Below, one piece after another: positions 3,001-26,997 of a stretch of 26,997 bases of DNA. The notes under the pieces were generated by a model. That model saw only the letters and a program-made list of their open reading frames with translations. It made no database searches and was not told where the DNA came from. The position numbers were made by a program, and so were the translations under genes. The DNA comes from Hormiphora californensis (taxonomy: Eukaryota; Animalia; Ctenophora). Position 1 is the first letter of the stretch; the number at the start of each line of letters is the position of its first letter. Location of the stretch: NCBI GenBank assembly GCA_020137815.1, contig WFME01000021.1:1-26997 (forward strand), read 5' to 3'.

Positions 3001-3629
3001 GACCGAAAGAATTCAGTCAAGTCGAGGACCTTGGTTAACTTAAAAACACTTCGATAGGTCTAATGTTCATATGCTGAATGATGTTCAGTTTGTCATAAAG
3101 ATAGAATTATAGATGCTATGTATTCACCATCATGATCAAAAGATCACGTACCTTTTCTCGCAGACTACATAAAGGCGCAGCGGTGCATGCTATTTAGTTT
3201 TATACCCCGCGTGTGCAAGGAGGCCGAGAAAGTGAAAGGTGCCTTGAATTTTATCGTTTGTCGATTGAATTTTACCCTAGTTTTCTCCATTTACAAATTG
3301 TTTCTTGCTTCGAACAAGTTGTTATTTTCTAACCCTCCTCGCGAAAAGGGGGTCGAGCTAGGCAACGAACAAGTAGGCTGTTACAGTAGGACTAGGCCTG
3401 TTCGGAAATTGATCTTTCTGGTCAGTGGTCATTAGACCAGACTTCGTTTTCGCGAGTTTGGACAGGTTGGGCGACATGAGACAGAATTAGGCGTAGGCTG
3501 AAACTGAAATCAGCCGGAATTTCTGAAATCAGACGGAACTTCTGAAAGCAAACACGTGTCAATGACTTTTGACTTCATCTGAAACGTCCAGACGTCTTCT
3601 AGGGCAAATCGTCCAGACGTCTTCTAGAC
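54..3629 (+). repeat. Left arm of ~7.2 kb fold-back palindrome
   Basis: Reverse complement of 3646-7275 throughout, e.g. GACGTCATTATATGTAAGGGAGAAAAAATTCTGG at 54 vs CCAGAATTTTTCTCCCTTAACATATAATGACGTC ending 7275; 16-nt spacer 3630-3645. Confidence 0.97.
1031..1396 (+). mobile_element. Degenerate 3' fragment of a LINE-ORF1-bearing retroelement, same family as 25448-26315 (mirrored at ~5930-6295)
   Basis: Encodes PDR...ERVERRTL, matching SDRTVEERVERRTL of the 25802-26332 ORF; followed by a conserved 3' region (CTCGTTACGCCAC...TGAACCCTC) also found inverted at ~25530-25670. Confidence 0.6.
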
Positions 3630-3645
3630 ATGAATGTAGGAATCC

Positions 3646-6600
3646 GTCTAGAAGACGTTTGGACGATTTGCCCTAGAAGGACGTCTGGACGTTTTCAGAT
3701 GCAAGTCAAAAGTCATGACACGTGTTTGACTTTCCAGAAGTTCCGTCTGATTTCAGAAATATTCCGGCTTGAATTTCAGTTTTCAGACCTACGGGCCTAA
3801 TTTCTGTCTCCATGTAGTCGCCCAACCTGTCCAAACTCGCGAAAACGAAGTCTGGTCTAATGACCACTGACCAGAAAGATCAATTTCCGAACAGGCCTAG
3901 TCCTACTGTAACAGCCTACTTGTTCGTTGCCTAGCTCGACCCCCTTTCGCGAGGGGGTAGAAAATAACAACTTGTTCGGAAGCAAGAAACAATTTGTAAA
4001 ATGAGAAAAAGAAAACAGGGTAAAATTCCAAAATAGTACAAACGATTAAAATCGTGCAGCCTTCACTCTCGGCCCCTCCGCCACACCGCGGGTGATTTTC
4101 AAAAACTAAAAATAGATGCACCGCCTGCGACCATTATGTATGGTCTGCGAGAGAAAATAGGTACGTGATCTGTTGATCTGATGGGAAAATACATGCATCT
4201 TAATTCTTCTTATGAAAAACTAGAACAATCATTTCAGCATATGGACAGTTAGACATCATCGAAGTGTTTTTAAGTAACCAAGGTCTCGACTGACATGAGA
4301 TTCTCTTCGGCGAGTAGGTAATTAAGTCGTGGACACTCTAGAATGACACTCGGATGACACTTCAATCAACACACTGCATTCTTTTGGAGTGTTCAGTGCA
4401 GTAGTCGAGCGGTAAACCCGGCCTTCTCCTCCCGACTTCTGAGTCTCTGTCCGACCGCAGACTTTGTTTCAATCATCTCAGATATGAAACTGACGATTTC
4501 CGATCCTAGCGATGTAAATCACCACATGACAACCGAATTTAGGGGCATCGAGAGTTCCATGCGAATCGTTTAACGCTAGGAAGAAATTGGATAAAATATC
4601 CCTCATCAATGAAATTTACAAAGAAATACCCACGTGAAAGGGAGTGTTATAGGCGCATGCACCGTCAGAAGATGATCTGATGGTGGCGCTTCCCTTTTTA
4701 TTAGCTTGGATCTTGCGTTTCCACGAGTCCGCGGAGTGACAAGAAGATACGCAATTGCCAACTCCTATTGTTAGGGATCCCGAGTGGCATAACACGCCGC
4801 ATAATGAATGTAGACAGCAGTTTTATCAAAACTGAAACTGGAATTATTCATGTCGGTAGTAGGGTAGAGCAAGCCCTGTCATATTGTTGTACTTTAAACT
4901 GTTCACCGGTGCGAAGGAAAACAAAAGGATGCCCGATTTGAAATATGGCGTAACAATACCACACCACTAAAATCAGTTTCTCGCGGATCATGAATAAGCG
5001 GTGTACTGGGTGCACAGCCCGGGTACAACTAATGACCTGACAAGGAAGTAGGAAAGCTGAGAAAGCGACCTTTAGTATCATCGCCATACACATCATTACA
5101 TATCCATCCAATGTCCAGCAAACACTCCACTTGGAAAAGTCAGAAAAAAGATGATATTGCTGATAACACTGATTATGAAAACAAATCAGGGGAATCAGGG
5201 CGAGGCTTAACCAGAGGTTAAATTAGTCCGGGAGTTGCTCGTCTCACAGGCCAGGAGGTCTGATATAGGAAACAGAGAAAGTTGAGGGAGTGTTGTTCCT
5301 ACCAGAAGATGGATGTATAAAATATGTTATCGAATCTGGTCCATTGTTTAGCTAGCGTGATGTATGAGTGAATTCAGTAGTCGCTGTGCTGCATTGCCAT
5401 AACACCGTTCTAAATGGTGATGAAATTATTGGGATTAAATTCTCAATATATATAAAATTCGCTCTCTCTACAACAATATCTTTGTCTCGACTGGCTCCTT
5501 TCCCACGAGAACACTGCATGCAGTAATGGGTCACAAACAGGCTTAACTATGCGAGCTGCCTATCGATTTGGTGATCATAATCAAGGACGCATAATATGGC
5601 GCGTTTTTATAAGTTGCAATTGCAATCAGAACACTTTAGGAAAGACAAAACAACAATCCACTATCACGTTCTGGGATCCCTCATACATTGTCATATAACA
5701 ACTTCTTTGAAGGGAACTCTCTTATAAGATTTAATCAATCGATTGCATCGCTTGTCACGTAGTTGATGAGCACAGAACTTTCAAAAAAATATGACATTCG
5801 AATGTAATTCTTCTGTGGTGGCACACAGCCCATGATAAGCCACCGTTTTGTTTCCTGGGTAATATGATTGGATGAAGACCGGGTTTTACCAGAGCTGTGT
5901 TGACTGAATGAATCTAAATGAAGGAAAATGAACCACGTAGCGGGGAACTGAAGGCCTCAGAGGAGGGTCAGGTGGCGTAACGAGGTCAGCTGCACTGAGG
6001 ACTTACTAAAAGTGTGCATTGAGTCTGTTACCCCCACCGTGAAGGCCCCACCGTGTGTTCTTATAACGCGTTCAAAATCTACAAATTACAATAACTCAGT
6101 TTACCCCCTCTTAACTGGAATCTCCCTCATCAGAATCACTCTCTCATCATGACTATACTATAGATGAGAGCCAGAGAAGTGCATGGGCTATTCTAATTGT
6201 ATAGCAATAGCCCACTTGGCCCTGATCCTCTCCCCTGATCCGCTCCCCCTCTCTTCCACATGTTCTCCTTCAAACCCTCTCCTGATCCTATCAGGATGTA
6301 ACCTAGCGACTGATTGATGGAAAGTTGTTTCAGATGTGCGGCCCCCGATAGTATTGTAGCTGGATAAATTTGATGAATACCTATTATATCTGCAGATATA
6401 TTCCGCAGAAGCCTACCTCAGAACAACCTGAACCAGCCTCGAAGAGAAGAACAACAGCAAACAAAAACCAATGACAACAAACCAAGTCGGGACCAACGGG
6501 ATGTTGATTTGTCGTCTAAATGATAAAGGTTGATATGGTCTGCAAAATAATATTTCAATTTTCAAGGTAAATTGGTTAACCAAGCTGCAATACATGCATG

Positions 6601-7275
6601 ATTGAATCCAGTCACCAATCGGGGGAATTATAGAGAGCGAATTACGCAGAATGAGAATAGAAAGACACATCTCTGTAATTCCTTGTCTTCGTACCAACGT
6701 TCCACTGAACCATACTAGCTAAACCCATTTATTTGTATTTAAATTTCAAACAGTTAAGATTGGCTCAATACTAGTTTCCGCCAAACAAAAATTTCAGTCT
6801 TCTAATTACGTCATCATGCTACTAAAATCAAATAAGTCACGATAATGTATGACTACCTGACGAGGTAGAGATCGAATATATTTTTCATTCATGCTAGATA
6901 AAATGTATACCATGAAGGAAATTATATCTGCCCTGGCCTTCTTCATTAGCATTAGATTAGATTATTTTCTAATATGAATTCGTTTTTTAAGAAGCTTCGG
7001 TCCCTTGCCTTGACTCTGTCTTCACCCCAGGTACGGAGAAAACATTTTGAAAAACAAAAAGGGGTTGAAACGAAACAATGACAATGGTCCTCTCATCTCT
7101 GGTCTAGATTCGACTTTTTGGTATCGAAATTCAAAATTACAAAACTGACCTTTCGGCGGTCTTTCTTATCACACGGAATTCGAGTTTGTTTGGCGTATTT
7201 CGGATCATAACTGATTTGAAAACTTTAATTTTGTCGACTAGCCAGAATTTTTCTCCCTTAACATATAATGACGTC
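3646..7275 (-). repeat. Right arm of fold-back palindrome (indel-rich copy, likely sequencing/assembly artefact)
   Basis: Colinear inverted copy of 54-3629; near-perfect around 3820-3940, elsewhere dominated by 1-2 nt indels. Confidence 0.95.
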
Positions 7276-7904
7276 ATTCGCACTGTTTTATTTCTCTCTC
7301 TTTCATTTCTCTCTAGTCTGGTGAGCAGGGCTGAATCATTTGTCTCCCATTACATGGGGTCTCATGGGTCTTCCGTCCGTGTTTTTATTCTTTAAATTTC
7401 GGCCAATTATTTTCCTAATATAAGTTGTGTGTAATGTTTGCTCATTTCATTAACATTTCTGGCATATCTATGATCTAAAACATAATTAGAGTGACTTGAG
7501 ATCACTCACAGTTTCGAATTTTGGGTAGATTATGTTTCAGTTAATCTCCATGCACTCTCCACTCTCAAGTAACTCTTACCTCCAGTTATCTTTCGCTGTA
7601 TGTGACGCTGGAACTTTAACACGATTAACTTAAATTTTGTTTTAATGTTATCAATGTCTTCCAAAGACCCTGCATTCATCCTTTTATCTCGTCTCATTCC
7701 CGCTCTTGCATTCAGCTCAAACTTGCAAACTGAATCCATGCCCTGGTAGCCCTGGTAGATAAAATTTGAACCAGTAATATTCGATATAGTAAATTGTTTA
7801 CTGGCCACATGTTACCTATCCTTTGGTAACGAAGTTACCCCTCCCTTGCCAGCGCACGGCGGAGAAGTTATTTCTTAATTACTATCGTTACTGTTTCGAT
7901 GCAG

Positions 7905-8065
7905 GCAATGACCGTTGAAGTTGAGTCGCCTGACAATTGCACTGTGTATCAACAATTCAATGTTGAGGAGCAGTCAGTTAAATTTGGAGGAGTTGCGGAG
8001 GCCCTTGACAAGGCCAACAAAAGATTCATCCTGAGTGGTGAGCGGTGCGCGACGAAAAACTCCCC
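7905..8065 (+). CDS. Candidate host-gene exon, product unknown
   Basis: gcag|GCAATG...CTCCCC|gtaagt; open frame AMTVEVESPDNCTVYQQFNVEEQSVKFGGVAEALDKANKRFILSGERCATKNSP; a phase-compatible acceptor follows at ~8247. No recognisable family. Confidence 0.3.
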
Positions 8066-8536
8066 GTAAGTTATATCTTAACTAGTTTTTGTTTTAAACT
8101 ACTCTATTAAATTGTGTTGAGTGTTCTAGTTTGTTCCCGAGATCAATACTCTTTCCATCGCAATTTAATTATTTCCTAATTTCAAACATACCCGCGTCCT
8201 GCAATGAGATATTGCAGACACAATGACAAATTCTACATCATATTTCAGACATAGAATGACAAATTTGGTCGAGCCCAATAATTTCTTACAGATAGTTTTA
8301 GGATAATTCCCTGACGTCCCTGAATATTTCGCACGGTAACCCTGCCTTTCGATAGCTTACCAATAACTTACAAATTGCTTTGTTATTGCTAAATTTGTAC
8401 GTGTTCGAATCTGACTGCCAGCTCTTTTATAGTATGTGATCACAATGCAAGTGCCACAAAAAGTACTCAGTCTGCACACCTTCAGGCTAACATATCCTAT
8501 GCCACTATATGCAGTATCATTCCTGTGAGGGTTGTC

Positions 8537-12014: not shown

Positions 12015-13236
12015 AAACTTCTCTTTCCGGGTCTACTGTGTGTGGCTTCCAGGCGCTGTCTGCAGCTGTACTCTATTTGTGTCCACACAGAGTTATATTG
12101 TGTACTATGAGCGGCAGAACACTATATAGGAGTCTTGTTTGGAGGTCTTCTCGTACCGTCTTTTGAGAGAACTTCTCCGTACCGTACCTTTTGAGAGAGA
12201 CCCTCTCTCCTTTGTTTTTATGTTCTTTTGTCAACGGATTCAGGATGATGTAGAAAGCTGCTATTTTTCAAAAACTGAAACCTTATATTTTGGCATACAC
12301 AGCAGTCGCTTGCCTTGCTCGACCCTGATTCACAACCAGTCGAACGTTTGCCTACTTTTTCCTACCGTCAATATCGTATGACGTAGTAATCGTTGCTCAC
12401 CATGTTTTCTCTCAATATCAAGTTGGTGTGTTTCGATCTGAATGTCTTCGTTTTACCTCGATAACGGTGACGGTAATCCCGGACCAGATTGGCCTCAACA
12501 CCGCGAGGAGGACAATAAGACCTTTGGGAAACGGTACAGGATCATCGCTCTGCTTCCATTTTGCTAGCTGTGCAGTACTGTGGCTGAAACTTTATCAGAG
12601 ATAAACTATCTCTCATGTTGTTGGCTGATAATGTCAGAGCATTGTTCTCATCCTATTCTCATTCCTTTCAAGCGGTCAGAGCATTGGCCTGACAGCTATG
12701 AGTGGATAGCCTCTTGGCGCTGACCGTATGGTGGGCGCTGAGTGCTGACGCATTTACACCATTATTGAAGCTAAATGTCGTGGCATTGTAGTGATTTATG
12801 TAGGGACTTTAGAGATTATAATAGCACCCTGATTGGTTCAAGTTACAGTTTTTGCATGTGGTTGATATTTTCTGGAGTTGATCGAATTATTCCTTCGAAC
12901 TCCTTTATAATTCAACCTCAAAGATATTTGAGGTGGGGTTACCATATCCATGACGCCCGGGCTGTTCTTTTGACTTCAGATTTTATGCTCCCCCTCAAAG
13001 GCCATTATTTTCCATCTCGAATGGAATATGCAGGGCGACTGGTCCAGATTAATTAGGATCTCAATAGCAGAATAGTATCATGCAGGGTCTAGGAAGTAAT
13101 CAGTCAATGTGCTGCTCTGTCTTCTTTTGACTTGTAGACTCTATATCTAGTGAGTAGTGAGCCTCACTCTAGTAGTATAGTGTGGACAGTTGGGACCCCT
13201 TTTTTGCTCGAGTTTGTGGCTACCATATATGGGCAT

Positions 13237-13265
13237 GTCACGTGACCCCACGGTTACCTAGCAAC
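13237..13265. promoter_or_regulatory. Palindromic E-box GTCACGTGAC plus RFX X-box-like GTTACCTAGCAAC
   Basis: Motif match only (13237-13246; 13253-13265); a similar CCCACGGTTACC-AGCAA occurs at ~10826. Confidence 0.35.
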
Positions 13266-13321
13266 AACCCTACCGTCGTGGCACCTAGCAGCAACCCTAA
13301 CCCTAATGTGTAGCCAAGTGA

Positions 13322-13652
13322 TAACCCTAGATTAGGTCATAGCGCTGACAAGGGCCACAGTGCAGTAACCTTAAATTGAAATGACTCTACACGATAACAT
13401 ACCTCCTAATCACTTTCCATATCCTTAATTTTGTACAAGTAACATCAATATTACTCCCGTGGTGTAGTGCTAACCCTAGATTAGGTCATAGCGCTGACAA
13501 GGGCCACAGTGTAGTAACCTTAAATTGAAATGACTCTACACGATAAAATACTCCTAATCACTTTCCATATCCCTAATTTTGTACAAGTAACATCAGCATT
13601 ACTCTCGTGGTGTAGTGCACCCTAGATTACGTCATAGCGCTGACAAGGGCCA
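13322..13652. repeat. 149-bp subterminal tandem repeat, ~2.2 copies
   Basis: TAACCCTAGATTAGGTCATAGCGCTGACAAGGGCCA starts at 13322 and 13471; partial third copy ~13618-13652; mirrored at 26761-26976. Confidence 0.95.
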
Positions 13653-14102
13653 GCTCAAACTCTACATATTTTCTTACCTTCTGACCCTCATTACTTGTCC
13701 CTGTTGAGCCATCATAAAACTAGGTTCACACCTTTGAGACAAACAACCCTGTTGTCCCTTTAAATAAAAATACAGTACACTGTTTATTCAAATTGGACAT
13801 TACCAAATCGAGAATGTGCATCACAAGATTTAAGATTCAGTAGTCAGTACAGAGTAGTTCTTTCGATGGTTTCTTGCCTGAAGAATCAACACTCAACAGC
13901 TTTCTTATTGGAAGTTGCAGGTTTTTGGGCGGCAGGTTTTGGTGACAACCACAAGATTCTTTCCGGATGTTTTACCCTTTACTGAAGACACCTGCATCTT
14001 CGTAGCTGGATTTACAGGTTTTTTTTTACCGGGGCCGCTACAGTTTGCGTTTTTTTTCTGGCCGGAACAAGAGATTTACTTTTGGTAGATGGAGTTGAAG
14101 CT
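13441..14102 (+). repeat. Long inverted repeat, left copy (candidate TIR portion)
   Basis: Reverse complement of 26312-26976; I see only about four small indels and no substitutions. Confidence 0.95.
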
Positions 14103-14505
14103 TCTCCACCAGACGCTGATACCGTTCAACTGGCTTCTAACCAGATGAGCTTGGTGCCGGTCTTTTCCGCTGTCCTTTAGAACCAGATGCCGCCTCTGAT
14201 ACTTGAACTGACTCAAACAAGGTTCTCGAGCCTTGAGCCACCATAAAGCCAGGAATTTCAAACGGGTCTCCACCTTGGAGATAAAGAAACCTGTTGTATC
14301 TTTGATATCCTTGATATGAGTAGGCCATGACTGCACCTAGTAGCTGAATTTGCAGATTTTTAGCCAGTGCTGATGGCCCGGGCTGATTTTCACCGCTGTA
14401 GGATTTCTGGATGGAAAGATATTTTTAAATGTTGATAAACCAGAAGCAGTCTTGAACCATCATAAAACCAGCGCTTTGGTTTCCACCTTCGAGATAAAGC
14501 ACTGC
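13886..14505 (-). pseudogene. Frameshifted remnant of a small K/P/S/A-rich basic protein gene
   Basis: Pieces across frames: SASGGEASTPSTKSKSLVPARKKTQTVAAPVKK / PVNPATKMQVSSVKGKTSGK / SPKPAAQKPATSNKKAVEC*; duplicated upstream motif FISKVET at ~14265 and ~14480; AATAAA on minus strand at ~13783. Confidence 0.35.
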
Positions 14506-15192
14506 TCCTAGAGTTACTACTACATCAACACAGTTAAAGACACAGAATTCTCTGAACATGGATATTTCCCTCGACTATTCAGTGGAATTTGTAATATTCT
14601 GCACTGAAATTGGACTGTGCTGGCAAGCAATTATTGGAATTAAAAATATACGTTCAAGTCTTGTAAACAAAATTTCGTGGATAAAACATCAATAATATTT
14701 AAACACGATTTTTTACTTTTAATAATTTATAATAATCAATCAAAGAACTCAAAACCATGATTTGCAAGGCTACGGTATAACATTCTCATATTCCGTTTTA
14801 ATAGTACATAAATTCTCGCAGACTGAATTTTCGCAACACTTACAACATACTGTCCTATTTCGAAACACTATTGTAACAATTATTACACAACTTTGCTTGC
14901 AGTGACAACTTTATGCAACATTTGCAATTTTTCATAACAGTAATTTTACGATAGTCTTTACAACGCTTGCAAAAGTTGTTTTTAGATTTACAAAATTTTG
15001 TCATTTTTTCTATAGCATTTGTAATTTTTCACTAGTAATTTTGCGATATACTTTTTACGAAGCTGGCAAAAATTATTTAAAGTTTATAAAATATCGAAAT
15101 TTTTGTAGCATTTTTAATTTTTAACTATGTTGTAATTTTACAATATAACCTCTGAAAATCGTACTATGCATTTGTTTAGGAGTGAACTGAAG

Positions 15193-18100
15193 TTAAATAT
15201 CGAGATATGTTGTTCTGAGTCCATCCTCCAGAACCTTTCTTTTGACATAGATATGATTAAGTCCCGACTTTTTCACAGCGTATGTGTGCATACTCCCTTC
15301 TTTCATCCTGAAACCCATGTTTGTCTGTTGGTTGACAGGTTTCTTCAGTAACACAGCTCTGTAGTCTTCGAACGTAAGTTTATTGGTGTGAGACACTCCC
15401 TTCGAGCTGTACTTCGGATCAGGTCCAGAACAAAAGTAAGTCTTTGCGTTGAGACCGATGAATCCGTCACCGGACCACTCCACTTTGAACAGGCCTATGA
15501 AATGTCAAATATTACTTACTCCAGATCATTTGAAACTCATGACACATCTTGGAAGAAAAATGAAAGATAAGAGATCGAATACCTGGAGTACGCTTGTCAT
15601 AAGCTTTGTGGGTCGCTCTTGGAAAATACTGCTTCTTTACAACGTCCCACTCGTCTTCCATCCCTTCTTTGACAAGCTCGTCCAGTGAGTCTCCGGATAA
15701 AGCCAGGTATAAACTATCTAAAAATTTCATGGATTTGAGTATTCAATATTCACGGATATTTTAACTAAAATATTGGCTTTAAGGGAGACATCACTACCTC
15801 CTGAAACTGTTCAAACTTCGTTTAGGATACTTCCTCAAGCAAAGGGGTGTGTTCATGCAGAATTTCATATTTTTGGCTTATCGGGTAGTTACAGTTCCCA
15901 CCACTTCCAAAAACGTGCACTCATGGCACTCTATGCTAGAAGTTGTTTTTGTTGTTGCGGCGACGCAGCTGAAAATTGATTGGGGCTTGAACCGCAACTA
16001 GACGAAAATTCCCGCCCTGTATTGAAAGTAGACACGGCCCGGCGGGCATTGTAAGAAACATTATCGTACACTAGCGTGGGAAAAAGTTTGTATGCTAGTC
16101 CAAAATCACGTGATAGTCCTAATTTCCAGACTACTCAACTTTAACAGCAAAAAAAAAACAGGTGAGTGATTCTAAGTCAAAAATCGCCTACAAATCTAAA
16201 CTTACCCGTATCCATCTCAAGAAGACAGAAATCCTTCCTGTCAATAAAACGATCTATTACTTCATAATAGAAAACCAGCATCTTCAACCTAAAATGAAAT
16301 AGGTTTATACATATTTTTTGAGAAATAAAAAGCAGAAACCTAGATACAGAAATCATGTAGAATTCTGTCATTGGAGTAAAATGGCGTACTGTCATTGGAG
16401 CATTCGCAGGACACATACGGGACAGTGGACACATACGGGGCACATTCAGGACACACGTTAAGTTATACTCTTGGACAGGGAAAAAAACTTACTTTGCATA
16501 CGCGTATACAAAGAAACCGAGATGTACTGGTAAATCGTATGTGACTCGTCGCTTCTTAGAAACAACCTAAGATGATCACAGAATTAGACAGAAATATGTG
16601 TTGTGGTAGCAGGAAAACCTGATGCATCATGAATGGAGCTTGAAAGGAAGACATCACCGCTTCCTGAAACTGTCCAAACTTCTTTTAGGATACTCAAGTT
16701 GATACAGAATTTAATATAGAATTTAATACAGAATTTAATTTCAGGCATGCAGCAGTGTTCAATATGACCTAAATATGACCCATAGCGATTTTGAGCGTCT
16801 TCTTCCGGTCATTTCGAGCACCAATAAGCTATACTTTCTCCAAAAGATAAAGATAGACATTTTTTTTTGTTACAAGATATTTGCTGGCTTTAGGAGACCT
16901 CAAAAAATCCAAAAACCTAAAATTTCGATTTGAGTGCTCAAAATCGCTATGGGTTATATTTAGGTTTGCCTAGCTAGACTGTGTTTCGTGTGCCCCACCC
17001 GCGACCTTCGCCTGGTCAGGTTCATGCTAGCTGATACAAGGCTGAGAGTGAGAGTTGATAACTGTCTGTCTGAGGAGTTTAACGTTTCCATCGGAGCTTT
17101 TCAGGGAGATAGTCTGTCTGGAAATCTCTTTACTTTATACCTTGCGGGAGCCCTCAATCACCTACGCTCCATAACATCAACTACCCGACCAAACCCACCA
17201 ATACAAGAAAACCTACTCCCAGTAGAGTGGGAATATGCAGACGATGTAGATTTCATCGACGAATCTGTTGATAACCTGACAGCCATGTTACCTATCTGCC
17301 AGGAGATTTTAGAGGAGTGGAATCTTCACGTCAACGAGACTAAAACCGAGCACGTTCATGTATATCTTGCCAGCAAAGATGAGGTCGATCACAAGGGCGA
17401 GCCTGTGAAAGACCGAGAACCATGGAGAAATTGTATCTCACTTGACTCTAAACTTGGATGCAAGGAGGACATTGAACGACGTTGCAACCTATCAAACCTT
17501 GTTTTTAGGAAATACAAAGCAGTCTGGGAACAAGGGCCTAGGATCTCCCTTGCCACTAGGCTAAAAATATACGAGGCGCAAGTGGTTTCGGTGTTGATGT
17601 ACAACTGCAGCAGTTGGGCAGCACCTAAAAAGACATTGCACTCACTTGATGTATGTCATAGGAAGCACCTTCGGAACATCCTTAACATCCGGTTTCCTAT
17701 TTGTATCTCCAACAAAACACTGTACAAAAGGTGCAATCCGGGCACAGTGGAAAATGTTTGGTCATATTCTTAGGAGCCAGACCAACGCCCCTGCTATGAT
17801 GGCTCTTAAATTCGCTGTATCATGTGATATGAGGGGTAGACGAGGGAGGCACCAAACAAACCTCTTATCAGTACTTAAATGTGACCTCAAGGATAGGGGT
17901 TTTGATATTATGCATTATTTTGATGCGGTTATGGAGGCTGCGAGAGACAGAGTTGGGTGGAGAAGTATGAGTGTCACTCATCAGTTTTTTTAGGAGCTAT
18001 ATTTTATATGCCATATCAAAACTGCACGAGTTCTATAATAATAATAATAATACATAATAAAGGAGGGTCACTGCGCTGGTAAGTGCAAGCTGTAATTTAG

Positions 18101-21100
18101 TAATGAGACCAGGCTGGGCCCGAGAGACAGTTCAGTGGTAACTGGGGGGGGGGTCATGTGTGATGGAAATGAGAACTAGAGACAGATTTGAGTTGCATTT
18201 TATTGAGGAAAATAGCCCTTTTTGGTGTCTGAGACAAGCAAAAGTGAAACGAAATGCAACGTAACGAACGAGTAATCCACTTCTGTGGTGCTAGAGGTTG
18301 TTTTTTTGTTATTGTTCCAGCGGACGCAGCCAAAAATTAGATGTCCTATATAGAAATTAAGCTGGGTGGTGGTTACTGGTTATGAGCAACGCTATCGTGG
18401 GAAAAGCATGTATACTAGTACAAAATCACATGATTGTCCTAATGACACCCTTTTAAATGAACTGTAGACTGTAAACTATAGACTGACATACCTCAAAGGT
18501 GTCCTCCTCTAGCTCATCGAAACTAATCAGTAATGGGTCGTTGACCATTTTGCTGGCTCTCTCGATGTCTGCTAGCCGGACAGTAGTGTGACGATCCTTC
18601 CTCATGATAGAATGTCCGTAGACACTATTCCCTATGAGCTTGGAAGTCTCAGCTATGATGGACTTATTAGGATCCTTATCTCCTGAAGAAAAAAAATTTC
18701 TTGCACCTAAGCTGAGTTTGGTTCTGCTATAGTGCGTTATCTTCAAATTATGACTCCAGGAATCCAATTTTCTTACCAGCTCGACGATCATCTGACACAT
18801 TCTGAGCGAATCTGGCGAAGCACTTGACTGGATTGAACTGAACAAATTGGTAGACATTTGTCACGACAAGTCCATTATCCAGGTACCACTTTAGCAAAGG
18901 AGTGATCAACAGAATTTTCTCGGCAAACATGGAACCTATCAGGTTTCGACGATCTTTGAAAGTTTCCCCTGTCTCCTTTAGAAAGGCAGTCATGTACTCT
19001 CCAATGTCCTCGCTACTAATCGTAGCGTTCTTGAAGAGAGGAGTCATTTCACCAAACCTGGTAAATTATTGTGATCAGCGGATCATTACCATTGAACGTA
19101 ATTTGTTCAGTTAGTCTTAGTCGGACTCATAGTCTTTTTTACCTTTGTTTGAGATGATTAGGCACATGTATGTCGACCTCGGCAACGCCGAAAATTTCAC
19201 CACTCTGAACAGATTCCAAAATTTGTGTTTCTGTCAACCGGTACGAGTCTTCAAGAGGGTAGTGATACTTCTTTATTACCTGAAGAGACTTCCTTGTCTC
19301 CCGCCACTCGCATTCCCACATTTCCACCACCTAGGAGAGACTATACATTATTGCGATTTACAGATTACAAAATTTCATCAGACTTGTCGAAATTCTTAAA
19401 CCCTTTGAGGCCCATAGTGATTGGCTGAACGAAATTTTCTAATTTTTCCCAGATATACCCAGCATGATACTCTAAGATTAGGGGAAAAATAGTTTTTCAA
19501 ATCGGTTCATTACTTTTTCAGATACAGCATGGGTCATATATGACCCTCTGGGTCGTTTGGGAAGTTAAGAATTTCAAGCGGCCTAGGGTCCTCCATATGC
19601 CTTCCAAGCCTCAAAAGCTGGTTAGTCAGTGCCCTAGAGATGAAACGAGTTGACAGGAACCGTTACATGAACTTAATTGACTGAATTCTCTAATAAGGGG
19701 TAGGTTTCAGGTCATATGACCCTCTGGGTTGTTCATTGCACATCACCTCACATGTGTAATTCAGGCTTTAGACGCTGTTTATGATCAAATAAGATGCCAA
19801 GCCCGCAGTCATAACCCTATATTCAAATAATACTGACCTCAAAGCCAAGCGAACGGATTTCAGAGTTGATATCTTGAGTCTTTTTGAACCTGGAATCATG
19901 ACTTTTCCAGCCAGATTTTTCAACATCACGATCTTCTTGGAAACACTCGGGGCAGCCATGATACCAACAGCCGTGGAACTGGAAGACCGTCTTGGACTTT
20001 CTGAAAATAGTAGATAAAGTGTATAAGTGATAGTTTTACAGTCTGTATTCAATCCTGTAGTTAATTACCGATGAAAACCGTCTACTGGTATTTTCTTTGG
20101 ACCAAGTCTAACTTCTCCGCTGTTCCTAGCATGCTGGATATCAATCCCACGCTGATCCTCAACCCAACCCAGCCATTCACATGATACTTTTGAGGTAGCG
20201 GTGGGGTACTCTAATATGTAGTCTGGGGCACGCCTTCGTAAAAAAATCCCACATGGCATTTCTCTCCCCATACATTCTGTTGGAAACATGTTTTACAGTA
20301 CCATAATTAATTCAGTGTATATGATACATTTGAGCACAGTCGAATAATATAGGTTATACATAGTTCACTTCTGGATTAGTAATAATTATACATGCTGTAT
20401 TATAGTATACCAAACTTCTTACCCAAGTACAGGGCGTTGGCGTCGAAACCGACTACCTTCTTACACAGCTTTCCTTCCGCGTTATGACGGATTTTCGTAA
20501 CACCTAAATAATATTCTTGCTTAAAATATCTTATAATAATTAATAGTAATTAACAAAAATGGATAAATAAAAATAAATATTTATAAAGTAAATAAGCGAA
20601 TATAAGTAAATAATTATATAAATAATTAAGCAAATAAGTAAATGAGCGAATAAGTATAAAAAATAGATAATTAAATAAATCAATACACATATATACAGTC
20701 GGACCCCGATTTAGTGGCATCCTCGGGGGAAAAAATCCTGCCACTAAATAGGGGTGCCACTGAATCGGGTTCAAATAATGTTAATTTTCGTATATCGGGG
20801 AAAAAAATCCTGCCACTAAATCGGGGTGCCACTAAATCGGGGGCCACTAAATCGGGGTCCGACTGTATAAGTAAATAAGTAGAAAAGTTAATACGGAAAT
20901 AAGCAATTTTATAATAAGCAAATAAGCAATTTTATAAAGAGTAAATATGAGAAGAAAAATTAAATAAGTAATAAATAAAATGTTTTGCAATAAAATGTAC
21001 TACAATAACCTGCTTCTGCGTAACGGTCATAGATAATCGCTGGACCGCCAACGTTGTTGGACAGGAACAGTTGCACTAGATCTTTGTTTTTACCATTGAA

Positions 21101-23812
21101 GAGGTGGAACGTCTCATCGCGGTTGTTTAGCCCCTTGAATGCTATCCGTTCTGCGATTCCAGGAACTGCGAAAAAATTACATCAACGTAGCTGGCTCTTT
21201 CCGAGTCAATATCTTATAAATTATGACTCGTTGTCAATACTAATTTTTTACGGTTCTTAAAAAAAAGGTTTGTGATTTAGTATCAATACCTGACAATGCG
21301 TCCTTGAATACGTCCACTCCTCTGTCCTTGTAGTACTGAACCAAGTTCTCGATCGCCTCGAGGAAGGATGTAACATCGAGGTTGTTATAAAACTTTAGAT
21401 AGTCTCCAATGCACCAGTTTTTCTGTTCGAACATGGTCTTCAAGTTCTCATATCGTAGACTTCCTACTTTCTTTACTTCGAATGGAATGAGGGGCTCTGC
21501 TTTTGTTGGCTGTCGACCAATGAACTCTACTTCCGCGCTGGATAACTCCTCCCCAAGAGCCGGTTCCAGCATGTTCTTCTGTTTGAGTGACGAGAAGAAG
21601 CTGCTGTACTCAGGGAACTCCTTGAGACCAAGCTTCTCGAAAGAGTCCAAAAACTCGTAGGGAAAGAAGGACTTTCTATCATTAGCTCCGTAGGCTTTAT
21701 TAAACTTATCGAGGGAGTAGCCAGGTGCAACATAATTCATGACATCCAGGAACTTTAGTTGATCTGTTGAGATAGTCATGTAGCTAGAACCCTTTTTTAT
21801 CATAAACTGGACCGAGTCTTCCTGAGCCAGAATTGGGAATAAGTGCTCTCTTAGAACGTTTATATCATATTTTGCTCCATTGAAGGCCAGAACGGGGAGC
21901 TGATTGACATAGTTCTTCCACCTTGTCAGAACCTTTTCATCCTCTATCTCATCAATGTTGTATTCCTCGTACAGCTCTCTTACCCTCACAGCAGCCTCAT
22001 CACTAATTTGCCGAAGATACTCCAGAAATTTGGTTACCAGATCTTTTTGTCCATCGGTTTTCTCGAGAATGAAGCATTTCGGACTTGTGTAACCAGGAAC
22101 ATTGGATGCGATGGATATCGAAACCAGATGATGTGTGTTTTCAAAGCTAGTTTTATCAGTCTTGGTAATGCTCACTTCCTTTGAGAGAAGACATTCAATA
22201 TCAAACACTGCACGGAAAGGGTAGGCGCGTAGATCATGTGGTACATTGACTCCTTGGTTCTCCAATTGATCGAAAATCGTTGGTTTCACACTGAAAGTTC
22301 CGCCAACATACTTCTCCCTGATGCTGATGTCACAAGTTTTAGTGTGCCGCTTGTAATGACCGTGGTGGTTGAAGAACTTATCACACTGGATACAACGGTA
22401 CGATGTGGAGTATTTTTCGAGGTCTCGAATAAAGCAAAAATGGTTCTGAAACAAGTTTATGTGCATGAGATTCTCTTCACTGATGGAACGCCAAACTGTC
22501 GAAGTTGATCTGTCTTCCTCTTGCTCATATACCACGATACCCACTTTGAAGAGCCTTGAGATGTCCTCTAGTTGATCGAGTGTTACGCCTGTGAAGTCCT
22601 TGGTCTTGATCGAGGCCATTTTACAGTACTCACGCACGAGCTTATTGGACTTATTTTCCAGTGACAGCGGGTCTGCACCCTGATGTAGTGCAAGGCATCT
22701 GAAAAAACACTTCTGGTCTTCGTAAGGTTTTCCAGTTTTTCTCGAGGTGACAAGAGAAATCAGCCCCTTATTTCGCAACAAATGGACAGGTAGGTCGACT
22801 CCGCCCCCAATGGCAGTCCCTCTCAAGCGAAACACGTAAAAGCTTAAATTCGTTACTTTTACAGCACTCCATTCTGTCGATGGTCGCCTAATAGCTTTAT
22901 CTAAATCAATCCCCTGTAACGAGTTGATGAAGCCCCTCTTATCCTCTGAGTTCTTTATCAAGATTGGAGTGTCGAGAAGGAGCTGATTGTTCTGGGAAGG
23001 ACGATAGTAAGCAAGTTCACCGGTTCTTCTGTGCTTCAAAATGACTCCCAAGGAAACCTTCACCTTGAACGCGTTATTTTGGTGTCTGTAAAGCTTTTTG
23101 AAGTTGTCTACAAGCTCATCAGTTGTTAGATTATCTACCTGAATATTGTAAACATCCATAATTCTACCAATTTTTACACTCGTTCTGATACCAGGGTGTT
23201 CTTTGTAGATGGTTTCAAATTCTGGTTCAATATGGAATTCTCGCATAGGAGAAGTAGGACTGGGCTGGGAATGGGAGAAACTGTGCTCAAGATTGATCAC
23301 ATGCTCTCTCTGGTGAGCCTCAAACTCTCTGCCAGGGATCTTACGCAAACAGACACTGCACTCCCTTTTACATTGTCTCCCTCCCTTATGCTTTTGTAGA
23401 TGAGTTCCCCGGACTGTATTTTGACACAATGGACAAGTAACCGCTCTGTTCTTTGTCTGAAGTAATGGAGAAACCTGTTAGTTATGGGAATTGTATTGAA
23501 TAATGAATCGAAGAATGGACCTTCGGTAGAACTTACATGGTGGAGAGAAGAAGGCCCAGGTTTTTCATCTTTTTCATCATCGTCCTGAAGGAAAACTCAC
23601 TTTAAATATGTAATGAAATTTATCTTACAATTAACATGAATAAATCCTACATAACAATACACTTAAATTAGTCTTTGGACAAAATATTCCTTTAGTGTTT
23701 TATCCAAACAGCGACATAATCTCACCTTTCGCTTCAAATTCAATAAGGCAGACAGTTGAGGTTGGACGAAGAAAACTCCCAGAAAGAAAAGAAGGTAGAT
23801 CCGACTCGCCAT
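15193..23812 (-). CDS. polB: Polinton-type protein-primed DNA polymerase B (pPolB), 14 exons, 1393 aa
   Basis: Exons (minus): 23812-23726, 23584-23537, 23474-21290, 21165-21010, 20503-20423, 20276-20069, 20000-19838, 19330-19143, 19057-18777, 18682-18492, 16566-16493, 16288-16206, 15717-15583, 15494-15193. All introns are GT-AG with compatible phases; total 4182 nt. Motifs: ExoI VFDIE, ExoII FNGAKYD, ExoIII YNNLD, VGGPAII, motif A GFDANALY, motif B KLIGNSVYG, motif C EMDT|DS, RTPGLFKVE, AKTY, SSKG. Exons 1-2 are less certain than exons 3-14. Confidence 0.92.
16767..16965. mobile_element. Small inverted-repeat element (MITE-like) in pPolB intron 10
   Basis: 30-bp IR with 1 mismatch: ACCTAAATATGACCCATAGCGATTTTGAGC (16767-16796) / GCTCAAAATCGCTATGGGTTATATTTAGGT (16936-16965); TSD not identified. 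Confidence 0.65.
16988..18060 (+). mobile_element. 5'-truncated non-LTR retrotransposon (RTE-like reverse transcriptase), antisense in pPolB intron 10
   Basis: GAFQGDSLSGNLFTLYL, EYADD, LHVNETKT, RLKIYEAQVVSVLMYNCSSW; frameshift near 17740 into WKMFGHILR..RGRRGR; (TAA)n-like tail 18035-18060. Confidence 0.92.
19143..20276 (-). CDS. polB: pPolB exons 6-8: Vsr-like PD-(D/E)xK nuclease domain inserted after polymerase motif A
   Basis: Spliced peptide EWLGWVE..IQHARNSGEVRLG..VDGFHR|KSKTVFQFHGCWYHGCPECF..IRSLGFE|VVEMWECEW. Confidence 0.85.
20696..20865. mobile_element. Tc1/mariner-pogo-type MITE (170 bp) in pPolB intron 4
   Basis: TA|CAGTCGGACCCCGATTTAGTGGC ... GCCACTAAATCGGGGTCCGACTG|TA; 23-bp perfect TIR, TA target duplication, internal GCCACTAAATCGGGG repeats. 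Confidence 0.92.
21290..23474 (-). CDS. polB: pPolB exon 3: two Zn fingers, terminal-protein-like domain, vOTU-like protease, Zn finger, 3'-5' exonuclease
   Basis: Covers the 729-aa ORF; CPLC..H..C, CSVC..H..H; EDQKCFFRCLA (Cys) and NLFQNHFCFI (His); CIQC..H..C; DIE / NGAKYD / YNNLD. Confidence 0.92.
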
Positions 23813-24318
23813 CCTCAGATATTGTCGATTATACTAAGTCATTAAGAAGCTGTGTACGCCCACACTCGTGACTATCTAAAAGAATTAAGAAATTACACAC
23901 ATGTGAAAATACATGTATGATGTAAGCATCACGGATAGATGTCAAGACCAGTAAGACTAAAAGGACAAATAACATAAGTTCCGAAGCTGAACCTAGAAAC
24001 ATGTGCTAACAGGTCAAAAAAAAAAGAGAGTACAGTGAGTAACTGAGCTCCATGCACTGCAAAGTGCAAACTGGTATCTGTACATTTTTTGTTATTCATT
24101 ATAGTGCAAAGCAACGGAAATTTGGCACATAGCAACCGGAATTCAGGCTTTCAAGCAATATCAACTACAGCTTTAGTTTGAGCTGCATCAGTCACACATT
24201 GAACGCACGTATAAAGAGAGGTAACAAAAGCACTGGACCTGTAATTACCCCGGTACCATGTGGACACCTGTTGATATTCGCTAGCCAAATTAGGAATAAA
24301 CTGGGTCACATGATGTAG

Positions 24319-24322
<4 letters not shown>

Positions 24323-24369
<47 letters not shown>
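24323..24369. repeat. (AG)n microsatellite in the divergent intergenic region
   Basis: Direct reading. Confidence 0.97.
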
Positions 24370-24375
<6 letters not shown>

Positions 24376-24671
24376 TGTGGATAAGTTGAAGTCTGTAGAC
24401 ACTGCAGCTACAATCACTGCAGCTACATACAATTACTGCAGATCATATCGTATACGATCGTACATTTCTCTGGTGTATCTGTCGTAGCACGTCTGGCCAG
24501 GACGTAACGGACATTGAGGGTGAACTATTGAGGCTGAACGGGAGGAGAGGGATAGAGAGACGTATGGGTTCGATAAAAAAATTGGTGTTCTATAATCTTG
24601 ACTACTAATTGCGGGTAGCACATCGCGAGAATTTAAAATTACGCAATAGTTCAGCTAGGTCTCTCACTGAG

Positions 24672-24677
24672 TATAAA
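24672..24677 (+). promoter_or_regulatory. Candidate TATA box of ORF 24712-25146
   Basis: GTATAAATA about 40 nt upstream of the ATG. Confidence 0.5.
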
Positions 24678-24711
24678 TACAAGTGAGATTTAGAACTATT
24701 TCATTTCCATC

Positions 24712-25146
24712 ATGGATGATTTTCTGAAGAACGTAGCCGATTCAGTAAAACCGCTTTATCGAAAAAACTGGAAAACTATCAAGCAAAGTGTTAAGAAAGG
24801 GATTCTCAAGGATATGTATCATTTTCCAATCTCTCCTTATGATAGCATCCCAGGGAAGCTCGGTGGAGTACTGAAATATTACAAAAAACCTGTAAAAATC
24901 AATGCAGCTTTTGGATACATATTAAGGAACACTGAAACGGATGAATTGAAGTTTTACCATCCATCCAACAATACAATGGTATTTGAAACAGCTCAAGTCA
25001 TAACAAATCAAGACGATATAATGAAAGTAAAGAATGAAATCGAAAGAGATGATTTGATCGAAATAGCACGCGAATCAAGACATTCCTCGAAGTGGGTGGT
25101 TGAGACCATTGTTTGTATACGTTTTGATGTATACAGATATTCTTGA
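24712..25146 (+). CDS. 144-aa stand-alone paralog of the pPolB N-terminal (terminal-protein-like) domain
   Basis: Intact intronless ORF; colinear similarity to exon 3: IKQSVKKGILKDMY/IRTSVKIGRIMDVY; KINAAFGYILRNTETDELKFYHPSNN/KVKVSLGVILKHRRTGELAYYRPSQNN; RHSSKWVVETIVCIRFDVYR/RPSTEWSAVKVTNLSFYVFR. Confidence 0.85.
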   Translation: MDDFLKNVADSVKPLYRKNWKTIKQSVKKGILKDMYHFPISPYDSIPGKLGGVLKYYKKPVKINAAFGYILRNTETDELKFYHPSNNTMVFETAQVITNQDDIMKVKNEIERDDLIEIARESRHSSKWVVETIVCIRFDVYRYS

Positions 25147-25447
25147 AGTATTTATTTACAAAATCGGTGTTTTATTTGTTAAATATATTTATAACGCAGT
25201 CGGACAAAATTCTTTGGAAGTGACCTAGGTTTTTTGTTTGTTTATGTCCCAAAATACAGAAGTTTTAAACAGATTTTGAAAACAAATCGTATTGTAATAG
25301 TAAAATCAAAAATCATTGGTAATTTGTAATATATTTCTAAAATGTTGAATTATAGTAAAAATGTGTCCCGAAAAAAAGGGAAGGAATGTGTATTGTGTTG
25401 CAAGTGTTGTGAAATAGGGCAGATATTATATGTTGCAAGTGTTGCGA

Positions 25448-26315
25448 TCAATCAATCAATCAATCAATCAAAGCTACCACGGTGGGTAGTGGCACTGAGC
25501 CGCAATTAAACATATAATATTATGAAAACTGAACCACACGGACCAAACTGGGTGAGGGTTCAGAGTGGCGTAACGAGACCAATTGCACGAAGTCGGGTAA
25601 GGACTTTTGTGTGCGTTGACCCCGTTACCCCACCCTGGCCCCCACCATGTCCTTACAAGAAACGGTTTTCAAACAACAAGGATGTGAATATATAATGATA
25701 TGATATCTGGAGAATGAAGAATGTTAAAATCTCTAAACTCACTCTCTCAGCTCTGACCTCTCACACATCATTCTCAGTTTTTTCATTTTCAGTCTCCACA
25801 ATTAACCCTCGTCTAATAGACCGAACTTTCTCTGGCTCAACTTCTCTTCTCTCTCTCTCAACTTAGCAACTAATGTTCTCCTCTCTACTCTCTCTTCTAC
25901 AGTCCTATCAGAGGCAATGAACACTGCCCGGTAAATCTCTGACTCTTTTAGCCGTGCTACCTTACCCAGGAGATCCCTGACACTCTCTCTGCTCCTCAGA
26001 ACCACCTTCACTGGCCGATAACCTCCCTCCCTGCTCCTTCCAAGCCTCTCAACCTTCGAAAGGACTGGTGCTTCCTCAAGATACTGGAACAGCTCTTTTA
26101 CCTTGTCACTTTCACTACTCCTCTCATCCTCACACAAGCCATATACAATCATATTACTGCTGCGGTCGGTTGATGCACTGGCAAAAGCAGACCGTATTTT
26201 ACTAGGGGCAAGGGCAGATGTGCATGCCTCATTCACTGCAGCAGCGGCTGTTTCGAGTACTGTTGAGTAGCTCTGAATCTCATTTTTGACGACTGTCTGA
26301 ACAGCATTTACAGCT
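25448..26315 (-). mobile_element. 5'-truncated retroelement carrying only a LINE ORF1-like (RRM-type) region, 3' UTR and (TGAT)n tail
   Basis: ORF 25802-26332: RSSNMIVYGLCE..VERLGR..RPVKVVL..VFIASDRTVEERVERRTLV, typical of CR1/L2-type ORF1; (ATCA)n at 25447-25470; no ORF2 between them. Confidence 0.8.
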
Positions 26316-26976
26316 TCAACTCCATCTACCAAAAGTAAATCTCTTGTTCCGGCCAGAAAAAAAACGCAAACTGTAGCGGCCCCGGTAAAAAAAACCTGTA
26401 AATCCAGCTACGAAGATGCAGGTGTCTTCAGTAAAGGGTAAAACATCCGGAAAGAATCTTGTGGTTGTCACCAAAACCTGCCGCCCAAAAACCTGCAACT
26501 TCCAATAAGAAAGCTGTTGAGTGTTGATTCTTCAGGCAAGAAACCATCGAAAGAACTACTCTGTACTGACTACTGAATCTTAAATCTTGTGATGCACATT
26601 CTCGATTTGGTAATGTCCAATTTGAATAAACAGTGTACTGTATTTTTATTTAAAGGGACAACAGGGTTGTTTGTCTCAAAGGTGTGAACCTAGTTTTATG
26701 ATGGCTCAACAGGGAACAAGTAATGAGGGTCAGAAGGTAAGAAAATATGTAGAGTTTGAGCTGGCCCTTGTCAGCGCTATGACGTAATCTAGGGTTAGCA
26801 CTACACCACGAGAGTAATGCTGATGTTACTTGTACAAAATTAGGGATATGGAAAGTGATTAGGAGGTATTTTATCGTGTAGAGTCATTTCAATTTAAGGT
26901 TACTACACTGTGGCCCTTGTCAGCGCTATGACCTAATCTAGGGTTAGCACTACACCACGGGAGTAATATTGATGTT
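26312..26976 (-). repeat. Long inverted repeat, right copy (candidate TIR portion)
   Basis: Reverse complement of 13441-14102; similarity stops at AGCT 26312 (junction with the ORF1 element) and at 26976. Confidence 0.95.
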
Positions 26977-26997
26977 CACAATAAGGTATGAATGTTA

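Follow-up and report, generated by a model that had tools for sequence, protein, structure and literature searches.

Background

The closest described counterparts of the polymerase gene considered here are the Vsr-type pPolB2 polymerases known from Polintons of marine nematodes and molluscs (Jeong et al., 10.1101/2023.08.22.554363, PMC10748475), which are likewise protein-primed family B DNA polymerases (PolB) of marine invertebrates, with a Vsr insert and the motifs Exo I-III, Pol A-C and KxY. In the available text of that study (PMC10748475) the term 'intron' is used twice, for group I introns, and an element had to have five or more core genes to be included; the available text of the preprint (10.1101/2023.08.22.554363) has no mention of 'ctenophor'. 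The vertebrate Mavericks, as described in the available part of Barreat and Katzourakis (PMC8097293), have terminal inverted repeats (TIRs) of 46-1447 bp with (AGT)2 as the commonest 5' end motif, and the core ORFs of the intact elements are intronless. For Polinton pPolB the domain order TP-vOTU-EXO-PALM has been given, where TP is the terminal protein, and a separate TP gene has been reported from a Stylophora polinton (Krupovic et al., PMC11161782); the word 'intron' is absent from the main text of that paper as available. Spliceosomal-type introns do occur inside the introner-containing eupolintoviral elements of dinoflagellates, where the introners are reported to be recent repeated families, mostly outside coding regions (PMC12166617).

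Neither an animal Polinton polymerase that has spliceosomal introns nor a ctenophore Polinton is described in the available text of these papers or of PMC8502044, PMC5718144, PMC12220804, 10.64898/2026.07.28.741278, PMC12859917 and PMC13465017, while early Polinton papers, Repbase and supplements may hold such cases. The window analysed here, a 26,997-nucleotide stretch at the start of contig WFME01000021.1 of the ctenophore Hormiphora californensis, resembles the vertebrate Mavericks in having pPolB and candidate terminal inverted repeats, with an AGTAGT at the left arm's outer end, but its polymerase gene is divided by 13 introns, and the other core genes were not found (PMC8097293, available part). 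The best explanation, to which a probability of about three in four is given, is that this is an intact 13-intron polymerase gene of a Polinton-type element, belonging to a likely still or recently mobile lineage that has been gaining and losing host-type introns.

Results and Discussion

Structure of the polymerase gene

The pPolB ORF is on the minus strand, where 14 exons spanning 23812-15193 join into a frame of 4182 nt that encodes 1393 aa and a stop and has no internal stops. All 13 introns, which are 62-1925 nt long, have GT-AG ends; there is a purine at donor position +3 in 11 of them, against a background of 0.47, and a YAG acceptor with a pyrimidine tract in 12, against 0.23. The gene had been proposed from the sequence alone as a stop-free 4182-nt frame in 14 exons with 13 GT-AG introns, and the frame, the splice signals and, for introns 3-13, the alignment of foreign proteins described below bear this out.

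An upstream spliced exon is needed, because the frame of exon 3 has no Met before its zinc fingers. Exon 1 (23726..23812), with an ATG and a hydrophobic leader of 29 aa, and exon 2 (23537..23584) are predicted from the frame and the GT-AG ends. The signal-like character of the predicted leader may be due to chance or to alternative 5' splicing. A hydrophobic extension of 18 aa also starts Bolinopsis isoform X2 (P0019) and P0017. Exon 3 (21290..23474) is a single intron-free block of 728 aa with the zinc fingers, the terminal-protein-like domain, the vOTU and the exonuclease.

The remaining exons, also on the minus strand, are shorter. Those placed by spliced alignment are exon 4 (21010..21165), for which the ORF ends of P0020 and P0021 suggest the same boundaries, exon 9 (18777..19057) and exon 11 (16493..16566). 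Spliced and protein alignments together place exon 5 with motif A (20423..20503), exon 7, within the Vsr insert (19838..20000), exon 10 with motif B (18492..18682), exons 12 and 13 with the first and second halves of motif C (16206..16288 and 15583..15717), and exon 14 with the KxY motif and the stop (15193..15494). Exon 6, where the Vsr insert starts (20069..20276), is fused to exon 7, and exon 8 (19143..19330) to exon 9, in contigs of a probable RNA run.

Motif C is cut by intron 12 as DT|DS, its second Asp being a split codon that is read from the exon ends, introns 6 and 7 interrupt the Vsr insert, and intron 5 directly follows motif A; these interruptions, pointed out in the sequence-only reading, are all seen in the protein alignment. 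The 11 introns that could be checked against homologs (3-13) all lie in the last 620 aa, with none in the 728 aa of exon 3 (p ~2e-4 if uniform). They also sit in the more conserved stretches of the protein (0.72 versus 0.60 background, p 0.002, the codon make-up of the motifs being uncontrolled).

Splice junctions

A spliced aligner was guided by foreign protein only, three of the guides being ctenophore proteins (P0001, P0002 and P0003) and one a Branchiostoma protein (P0005). With P0001, P0002 or P0003, introns 3-13 are recovered to the base, with no stops and no frameshifts, and junctions 3-13 have no gaps in the protein alignment. The distant Branchiostoma guide recovers 10 of these 11 introns and adds one that is spurious. 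In the non-conserved region at the 5' end, the junction chosen with the P0001 guide differs from the predicted introns 1 and 2.

The reads of four runs were compared over 14900-25300, one of which, X6, is RNA according to the guess of the tool. The depth of X6 is zero in the bins of the LINE and of the intron-4 MITE described below, where the two covering DNA runs have depths from 130 to more than 200,000, and X6 therefore behaves as RNA. All six of the long X6 contigs listed lie on exons, while short X6 contigs match repeats in introns 10 and 12 as well. Exon 6 is followed by exon 7 in an X6 contig that skips exactly the 68 nt of intron 6, and exon 8 by exon 9 where exactly the 85 nt of intron 8 are skipped. 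The X6 sequence is 93.7% identical to the window gene. The RNA support is for two of the 13 junctions and comes from a copy that is ~6% divergent. Since a second DNA individual differs from the window at 57 of 6513 bases (~1%), the X6 RNA is likely to derive from a sister copy or from a distant population. The exact removal of introns 6 and 8 from this copy in a probable RNA run supports the proposal that the gene is spliced by the host.

The polymerase protein

The Exo I-III, Pol A, B and C and KxY motifs are intact, with acidic and other motif residues that align with those of the relatives, and this alignment supports at the protein level the earlier claim of a conserved, intact polymerase. 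Among the exonic pPolB variants listed (n=4), three are synonymous and one is not. The catalytic Cys and His motifs of the vOTU are present at aa 298-307 and 389-396. A model of exon 3 (mean pLDDT 81) matches adintovirus, bidnavirus-like and adenovirus polymerases; it aligns with the phi29 exonuclease (Z 13.7, rmsd 3.0, 167 aligned), and its residues 229-353 align with several OTU structures (Z 8.4-8.7, rmsd 3.5-4.2), the OTU matches of exon 3 overall having Z 8.4-9.1. The C-terminal part of the window pPolB is 52% identical to P0048, a member of the same clade, the model of which (pLDDT 91) has phi29 polymerase as its top three PDB matches (E 1e-9 to 8e-9). A profile of 58 relatives matches E. 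coli Vsr at 2.6e-6, and the motifs of this insert are present in the window. For the N-terminal terminal-protein-like domain, the position and the alpha/beta pattern fit, and there is a weak match to Pol kappa (E 0.096).

Pfam DNA_pol_B_2 has no match in the four window exon ORFs tested or in three ctenophore proteins, and does match the more distant relatives P0004 (9e-8) and P0011 (7e-11). The check by HMM and structure searches, which the sequence-only reading had suggested with this family in mind, is thus borne out for the phi29-like fold, the OTU and the Vsr profile and fails for DNA_pol_B_2 in the exon ORFs.

As judged from its motifs, the window protein is a Vsr-type protein-primed PolB with its catalytic motifs intact, and it can be likened to the Vsr subgroup of pPolB2 by these motifs together with the Vsr insert. 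Its layout appears to be TP-vOTU-EXO-PALM (PMC11161782) with the addition of the Vsr insert of the marine pPolB2 (10.1101/2023.08.22.554363), the TP being assigned by position. The order of the domains appears to be the same as in the Polinton polymerases of Krupovic et al. and the vOTU Cys and His are shared with them, but the TP-like domain of the window is present twice, once fused to the polymerase and once as a stand-alone paralog (compared with PMC11161782 as available).

Relatives and copy number

The best full-length matches are to proteins of Bolinopsis microptera (51%) and Mnemiopsis leidyi (45%), and other full-length relatives reach at most 39%. In an IQ-TREE phylogeny of 38 rows the window is in a clade of 13 rows (support 100/100) together with the Bolinopsis and Mnemiopsis proteins and marine contigs, and a FastTree of 112 rows agrees with a clade of the window and the ctenophore proteins; locus L023, which has seven frameshifts, was excluded from the tree and from the count of shared intron sites. 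No relative was found when viral contigs were scanned with exon 3 and with the alignments A2 and A3, or when metagenomes were scanned with exon 3.

In Mnemiopsis there are three copies of 1360 aa on three contigs, differing by 2-8 residues, and in Bolinopsis there are two separate families within the clade, one of which has two copies that are 8 residues apart. Dispersed, near-identical copies such as these are, on the evidence of the protein sequences, the pattern of a recently mobile element. The sequence-only reading had left the choice between a domesticated viral polymerase and a lineage of intron-rich self-synthesizing elements, with many dispersed near-identical copies named as the finding that would speak against domestication, and in Mnemiopsis and Bolinopsis such copies are found.

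The X1 DNA depth over the window pPolB is only 24-36, similar to that of the surroundings. This low depth is in keeping with a host gene of Polinton-polymerase descent that is present as a single copy, was domesticated for a cellular role and was intronised like other host genes, as is the ~1% difference in the second individual, which would fit alleles. That the frame has stayed intact despite transposable element insertions, all of them intronic, that the gene is transcribed and spliced in the probable RNA run, and that integrase and capsid genes were not found nearby would also agree with domestication. It is nevertheless improbable, given that the sister proteins are near-identical dispersed copies, that Bolinopsis has two families rather than one gene, that the intron sets differ between families, that the gene is between near-identical inverted repeats in the company of an element gene, and that the RNA stems from the 6%-divergent copy. 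Indeed, there is no good sign here of a cellular protein-primed polymerase. Of the two possibilities left by the sequence-only reading it is therefore the lineage of intron-rich elements that is supported, by the dispersed relatives, the inverted repeats, the companion gene and the differing intron sets, and domestication that is not.

Intron positions within the clade

The metagenome sequences provided 79 loci, and the best 20 tblastn matches were run through the spliced aligner. Because the aligner calls too many introns where distant loci have insertions, the shared sites were counted in the four clade loci with strong signals (L002, L009, L017 and L037). These carry 15 introns, 7 of which match the window in codon and phase (853/1, 922/2 twice, 1197/0 twice, 1249/1 and 1294/1), where 0.08 matches would be expected by chance if any site could be used and 1.65 if 1 in 20 could. 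Intron 5 is common to L009, intron 6 to L009 and L037, intron 10 to L002 and L037, and introns 12 and 13 both to L002.

Further sites are implied by the ends of ORFs. Those of P0020, P0021 and P0048 imply that introns 3 and 4 are also present in relatives, and those of P0026 imply intron 10 plus one site of its own; for the NCBI genes of Bolinopsis and Mnemiopsis, we infer the intron content from the ORF ends of members of their clusters. With such ORF-end evidence included, 7 of the 11 introns 3-13 are taken to recur elsewhere, and the families that share intron sites with the window are ~50% identical to it in protein. Other members of the clade are intron-poor: the sister locus L001 is free of introns from aa 687 to aa 1393, and P0048 has none after intron 3, each on a contig that may be DNA or RNA. 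Outside the ctenophore clade, the polymerases of L012, L015 and L010 have one likely intron within motif B, the positions being aa 1149 phase 0 (87 nt) and aa 1153 phase 2 (203 nt). These are close to the 1150 phase 1 site of the ctenophore clade but do not coincide with it.

It might be supposed that an ordinary intronless Polinton polymerase was immobilised at this locus and that its introns were acquired there afterwards, perhaps through an introner burst, since introners do invade the eupolintoviral elements of dinoflagellates (PMC12166617, available part). The short introns of the window pPolB are mutually dissimilar, however, which argues against a recent introner burst, and only introns 10 and 12 have repeat pieces in common, these belonging to one repeat (15781-15831 and 16644-16694, 76-88% identical). 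The recurrence of 7 of the 11 introns in families that are only half identical in protein weighs further against local gain, which seems already largely refuted by the shared sites and is regarded as very improbable, more so than domestication. Unlike the dinoflagellate introners, the introns of the window are mutually unrelated, old, common to diverged families, and in an animal host.

Repeats within the introns

Intron 10 contains a 5'-truncated, broken LINE on the plus strand (16964..18050, the 3' end being approximate), of which a reverse transcriptase piece is recognised by Pfam RVT_1 (5.6e-8) and which has high DNA depth, and next to it a MITE-like element with 30-nt inverted ends (16767..16965). 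A second MITE-like element, flanked by TA and with inverted ends that match perfectly, is in intron 4 (20696..20865), and a high-copy repeat is in intron 7 (19430..19760, ends approximate), where the bin 19411-19757 has DNA depths of 1382 and 15652. It had been noted from the sequence that a LINE and at least two MITEs sit inside the gene and that all are intronic, and this is so for the LINE and both MITE-like elements. The sole Rfam match over 13000-26997, a sub-threshold SNORD50 match in exon 10, was rejected as chance.

Inverted repeats and companion gene

An inverted repeat with arms of ~660-950 bp brackets both pPolB and a gene of 144 aa. The left arm, a candidate TIR, is at 13153..14102 and contains 149-bp tandem units; the right arm, at 26312..26997, runs off the end of the window. 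Between 13441-14102 and 26312-26976 the arms are identical at 661 of 661 aligned bases, with 4 indels. Through its tandem units the left arm extends outward to 13317, and 13153-13316 has no partner inside the window. The last 21 nt of the window continue the right arm noisily, with none of 2000 random 40-mers scoring as high. AGTAGT is found at 13153 and 13171, two of its 10 plus-strand occurrences in the window, and the right end of the element, and with it any 6-bp target-site duplication, lies outside the window. Two telomere-type CCCTAA hexamers are at 13295-13306, and similar words recur in the 149-bp tandem units. A reading of the inverted repeat as the 5' ends of two LINEs was dropped after the arms were compared.

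At the other end of the contig, window positions 54-7275 form a giant fold-back with arms that are 83% identical and a centre near 3600, which has probably arisen as an artefact of long-read assembly where the contig begins; the inverted repeat around pPolB could therefore also be an assembly product.

The gene of 144 aa (24712..25146, plus strand) is head to head with pPolB and is the stand-alone paralog of the TP-like domain, at 27% identity to pPolB exon 3 (E 5e-12). There are 19 homologs, which form many clusters and include a Pleurobrachia bachei protein at 87% identity. Together with the best pPolB matches in Bolinopsis and Mnemiopsis, this similarity points to a comb-jelly host that is probably close to Pleurobrachia. 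An ortholog (41%, 1.6e-31) adjoins the pPolB of L001, and the gene can therefore be assigned to the element. Its DNA depth is above that of the polymerase, 76-97 against ~32 in X1 and ~560 against 54 in X5, and it has more variants too, of which 7 of the 12 listed are synonymous; it may be that this gene rides on more numerous non-autonomous elements. The ESM Atlas had no usable match for it or for the ORF at 14140-14424. Short ORF pieces on the minus strand at 13700..14574, partly inside the left arm, have a 20-nt motif three times (13704-13723, 14233-14252 and 14452-14471), and these have no Pfam, Rfam or Atlas match.

Missing genes

No rve integrase was matched by Pfam among 82 further ORFs of at least 40 aa in the non-exon parts of 13100-26997, a search that very short exons escape, and the integrase of the outgroup locus L007 has no tblastn match outside pPolB. 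Nor was a packaging ATPase, protease or major or minor capsid gene recognised between the arms, in a search with no positive control for capsid and protease. In L007 itself, which has the layout pPolB + ATPase + rve, Pfam finds rve and Pox_A32. The DNA between the arms that is left over after the known features amounts to ~2.6 kb. Since the integrase was not found, the membership of the element in the Polintons proper is not established.

On its inner side, the right arm abuts a LINE ORF1-like fragment on the minus strand (25802..26311), which has no Pfam match at the cut-off and is presumably LINE ORF1. The missing genes may have been lost at this point. On such a reading the locus would be a decaying deletion derivative of a complete, intron-bearing Polinton, its integrase and capsid module having gone at or near the LINE fragment at the right repeat. 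The inner edge of the right arm does coincide with this ORF1-only piece, the continuation of the left arm was not found beyond it, and the outgroup locus L007 has the canonical layout. Against decay, the arms are still identical at every one of the 661 aligned bases and the polymerase is without lesion. A deletion of this kind is a realistic possibility, held at somewhat short of even odds; like the best explanation it assumes an intron-rich mobile lineage, and it departs from that explanation only over the interpretation of the missing genes.

A more specific proposal, which is tentative and on balance unlikely, is that of a comb-jelly lineage of polymerase-only, Polinton-derived replicons, consisting of inverted repeats, an intron-rich pPolB and the stand-alone TP paralog, in which the integrase and capsid have been given up. 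These would serve a split or helper-dependent virus as its replication half, and would have been nuclear for long enough to acquire a host-like exon-intron structure, with introns in the polymerase half and biased to the conserved motifs.

Replication and the persistence of introns

As the polymerase gene of a Polinton-type element in a mobile, intron-rich lineage, the gene works like a Polinton replication module. Transcription of an integrated copy of the element would take place in the nucleus, with the host splicing the transcript, and the polymerase would use its own terminal-protein domain to prime replication at the ends of the inverted repeats, with the vOTU cutting off the terminal-protein domain, as has been proposed for polintons (PMC11161782, available part). 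Because the element copies itself as DNA, the introns, and the transposable elements parked in them, would be carried along, and the intron-poor sisters would arise through occasional loss. With no integrase, ATPase, protease or capsid recognisable between the repeats, the window copy would need the integrase and any capsid in trans, from another element.

The intact Mavericks have been defined and mined as intronless (PMC8097293, available part), so that an intron-rich polymerase would count as a dead fragment and lineages of this kind would be missed. Through the pPolB gene, a self-synthesizing element is linked to the host spliceosome. Intron numbers in the families of the clade range from 0 to 13, and the sites are shared in part, which makes a compact and testable case of intron gain and loss, and one in a DNA element whose movement requires no RNA step.

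Sequence outside the left arm

At 12130-12640, outside the left arm, there is a degraded frame on the minus strand that is presumably LINE ORF1-like. Further out, possible exons of a host gene, with GT-AG ends read by eye, are on the plus strand at window positions 7870-8340.
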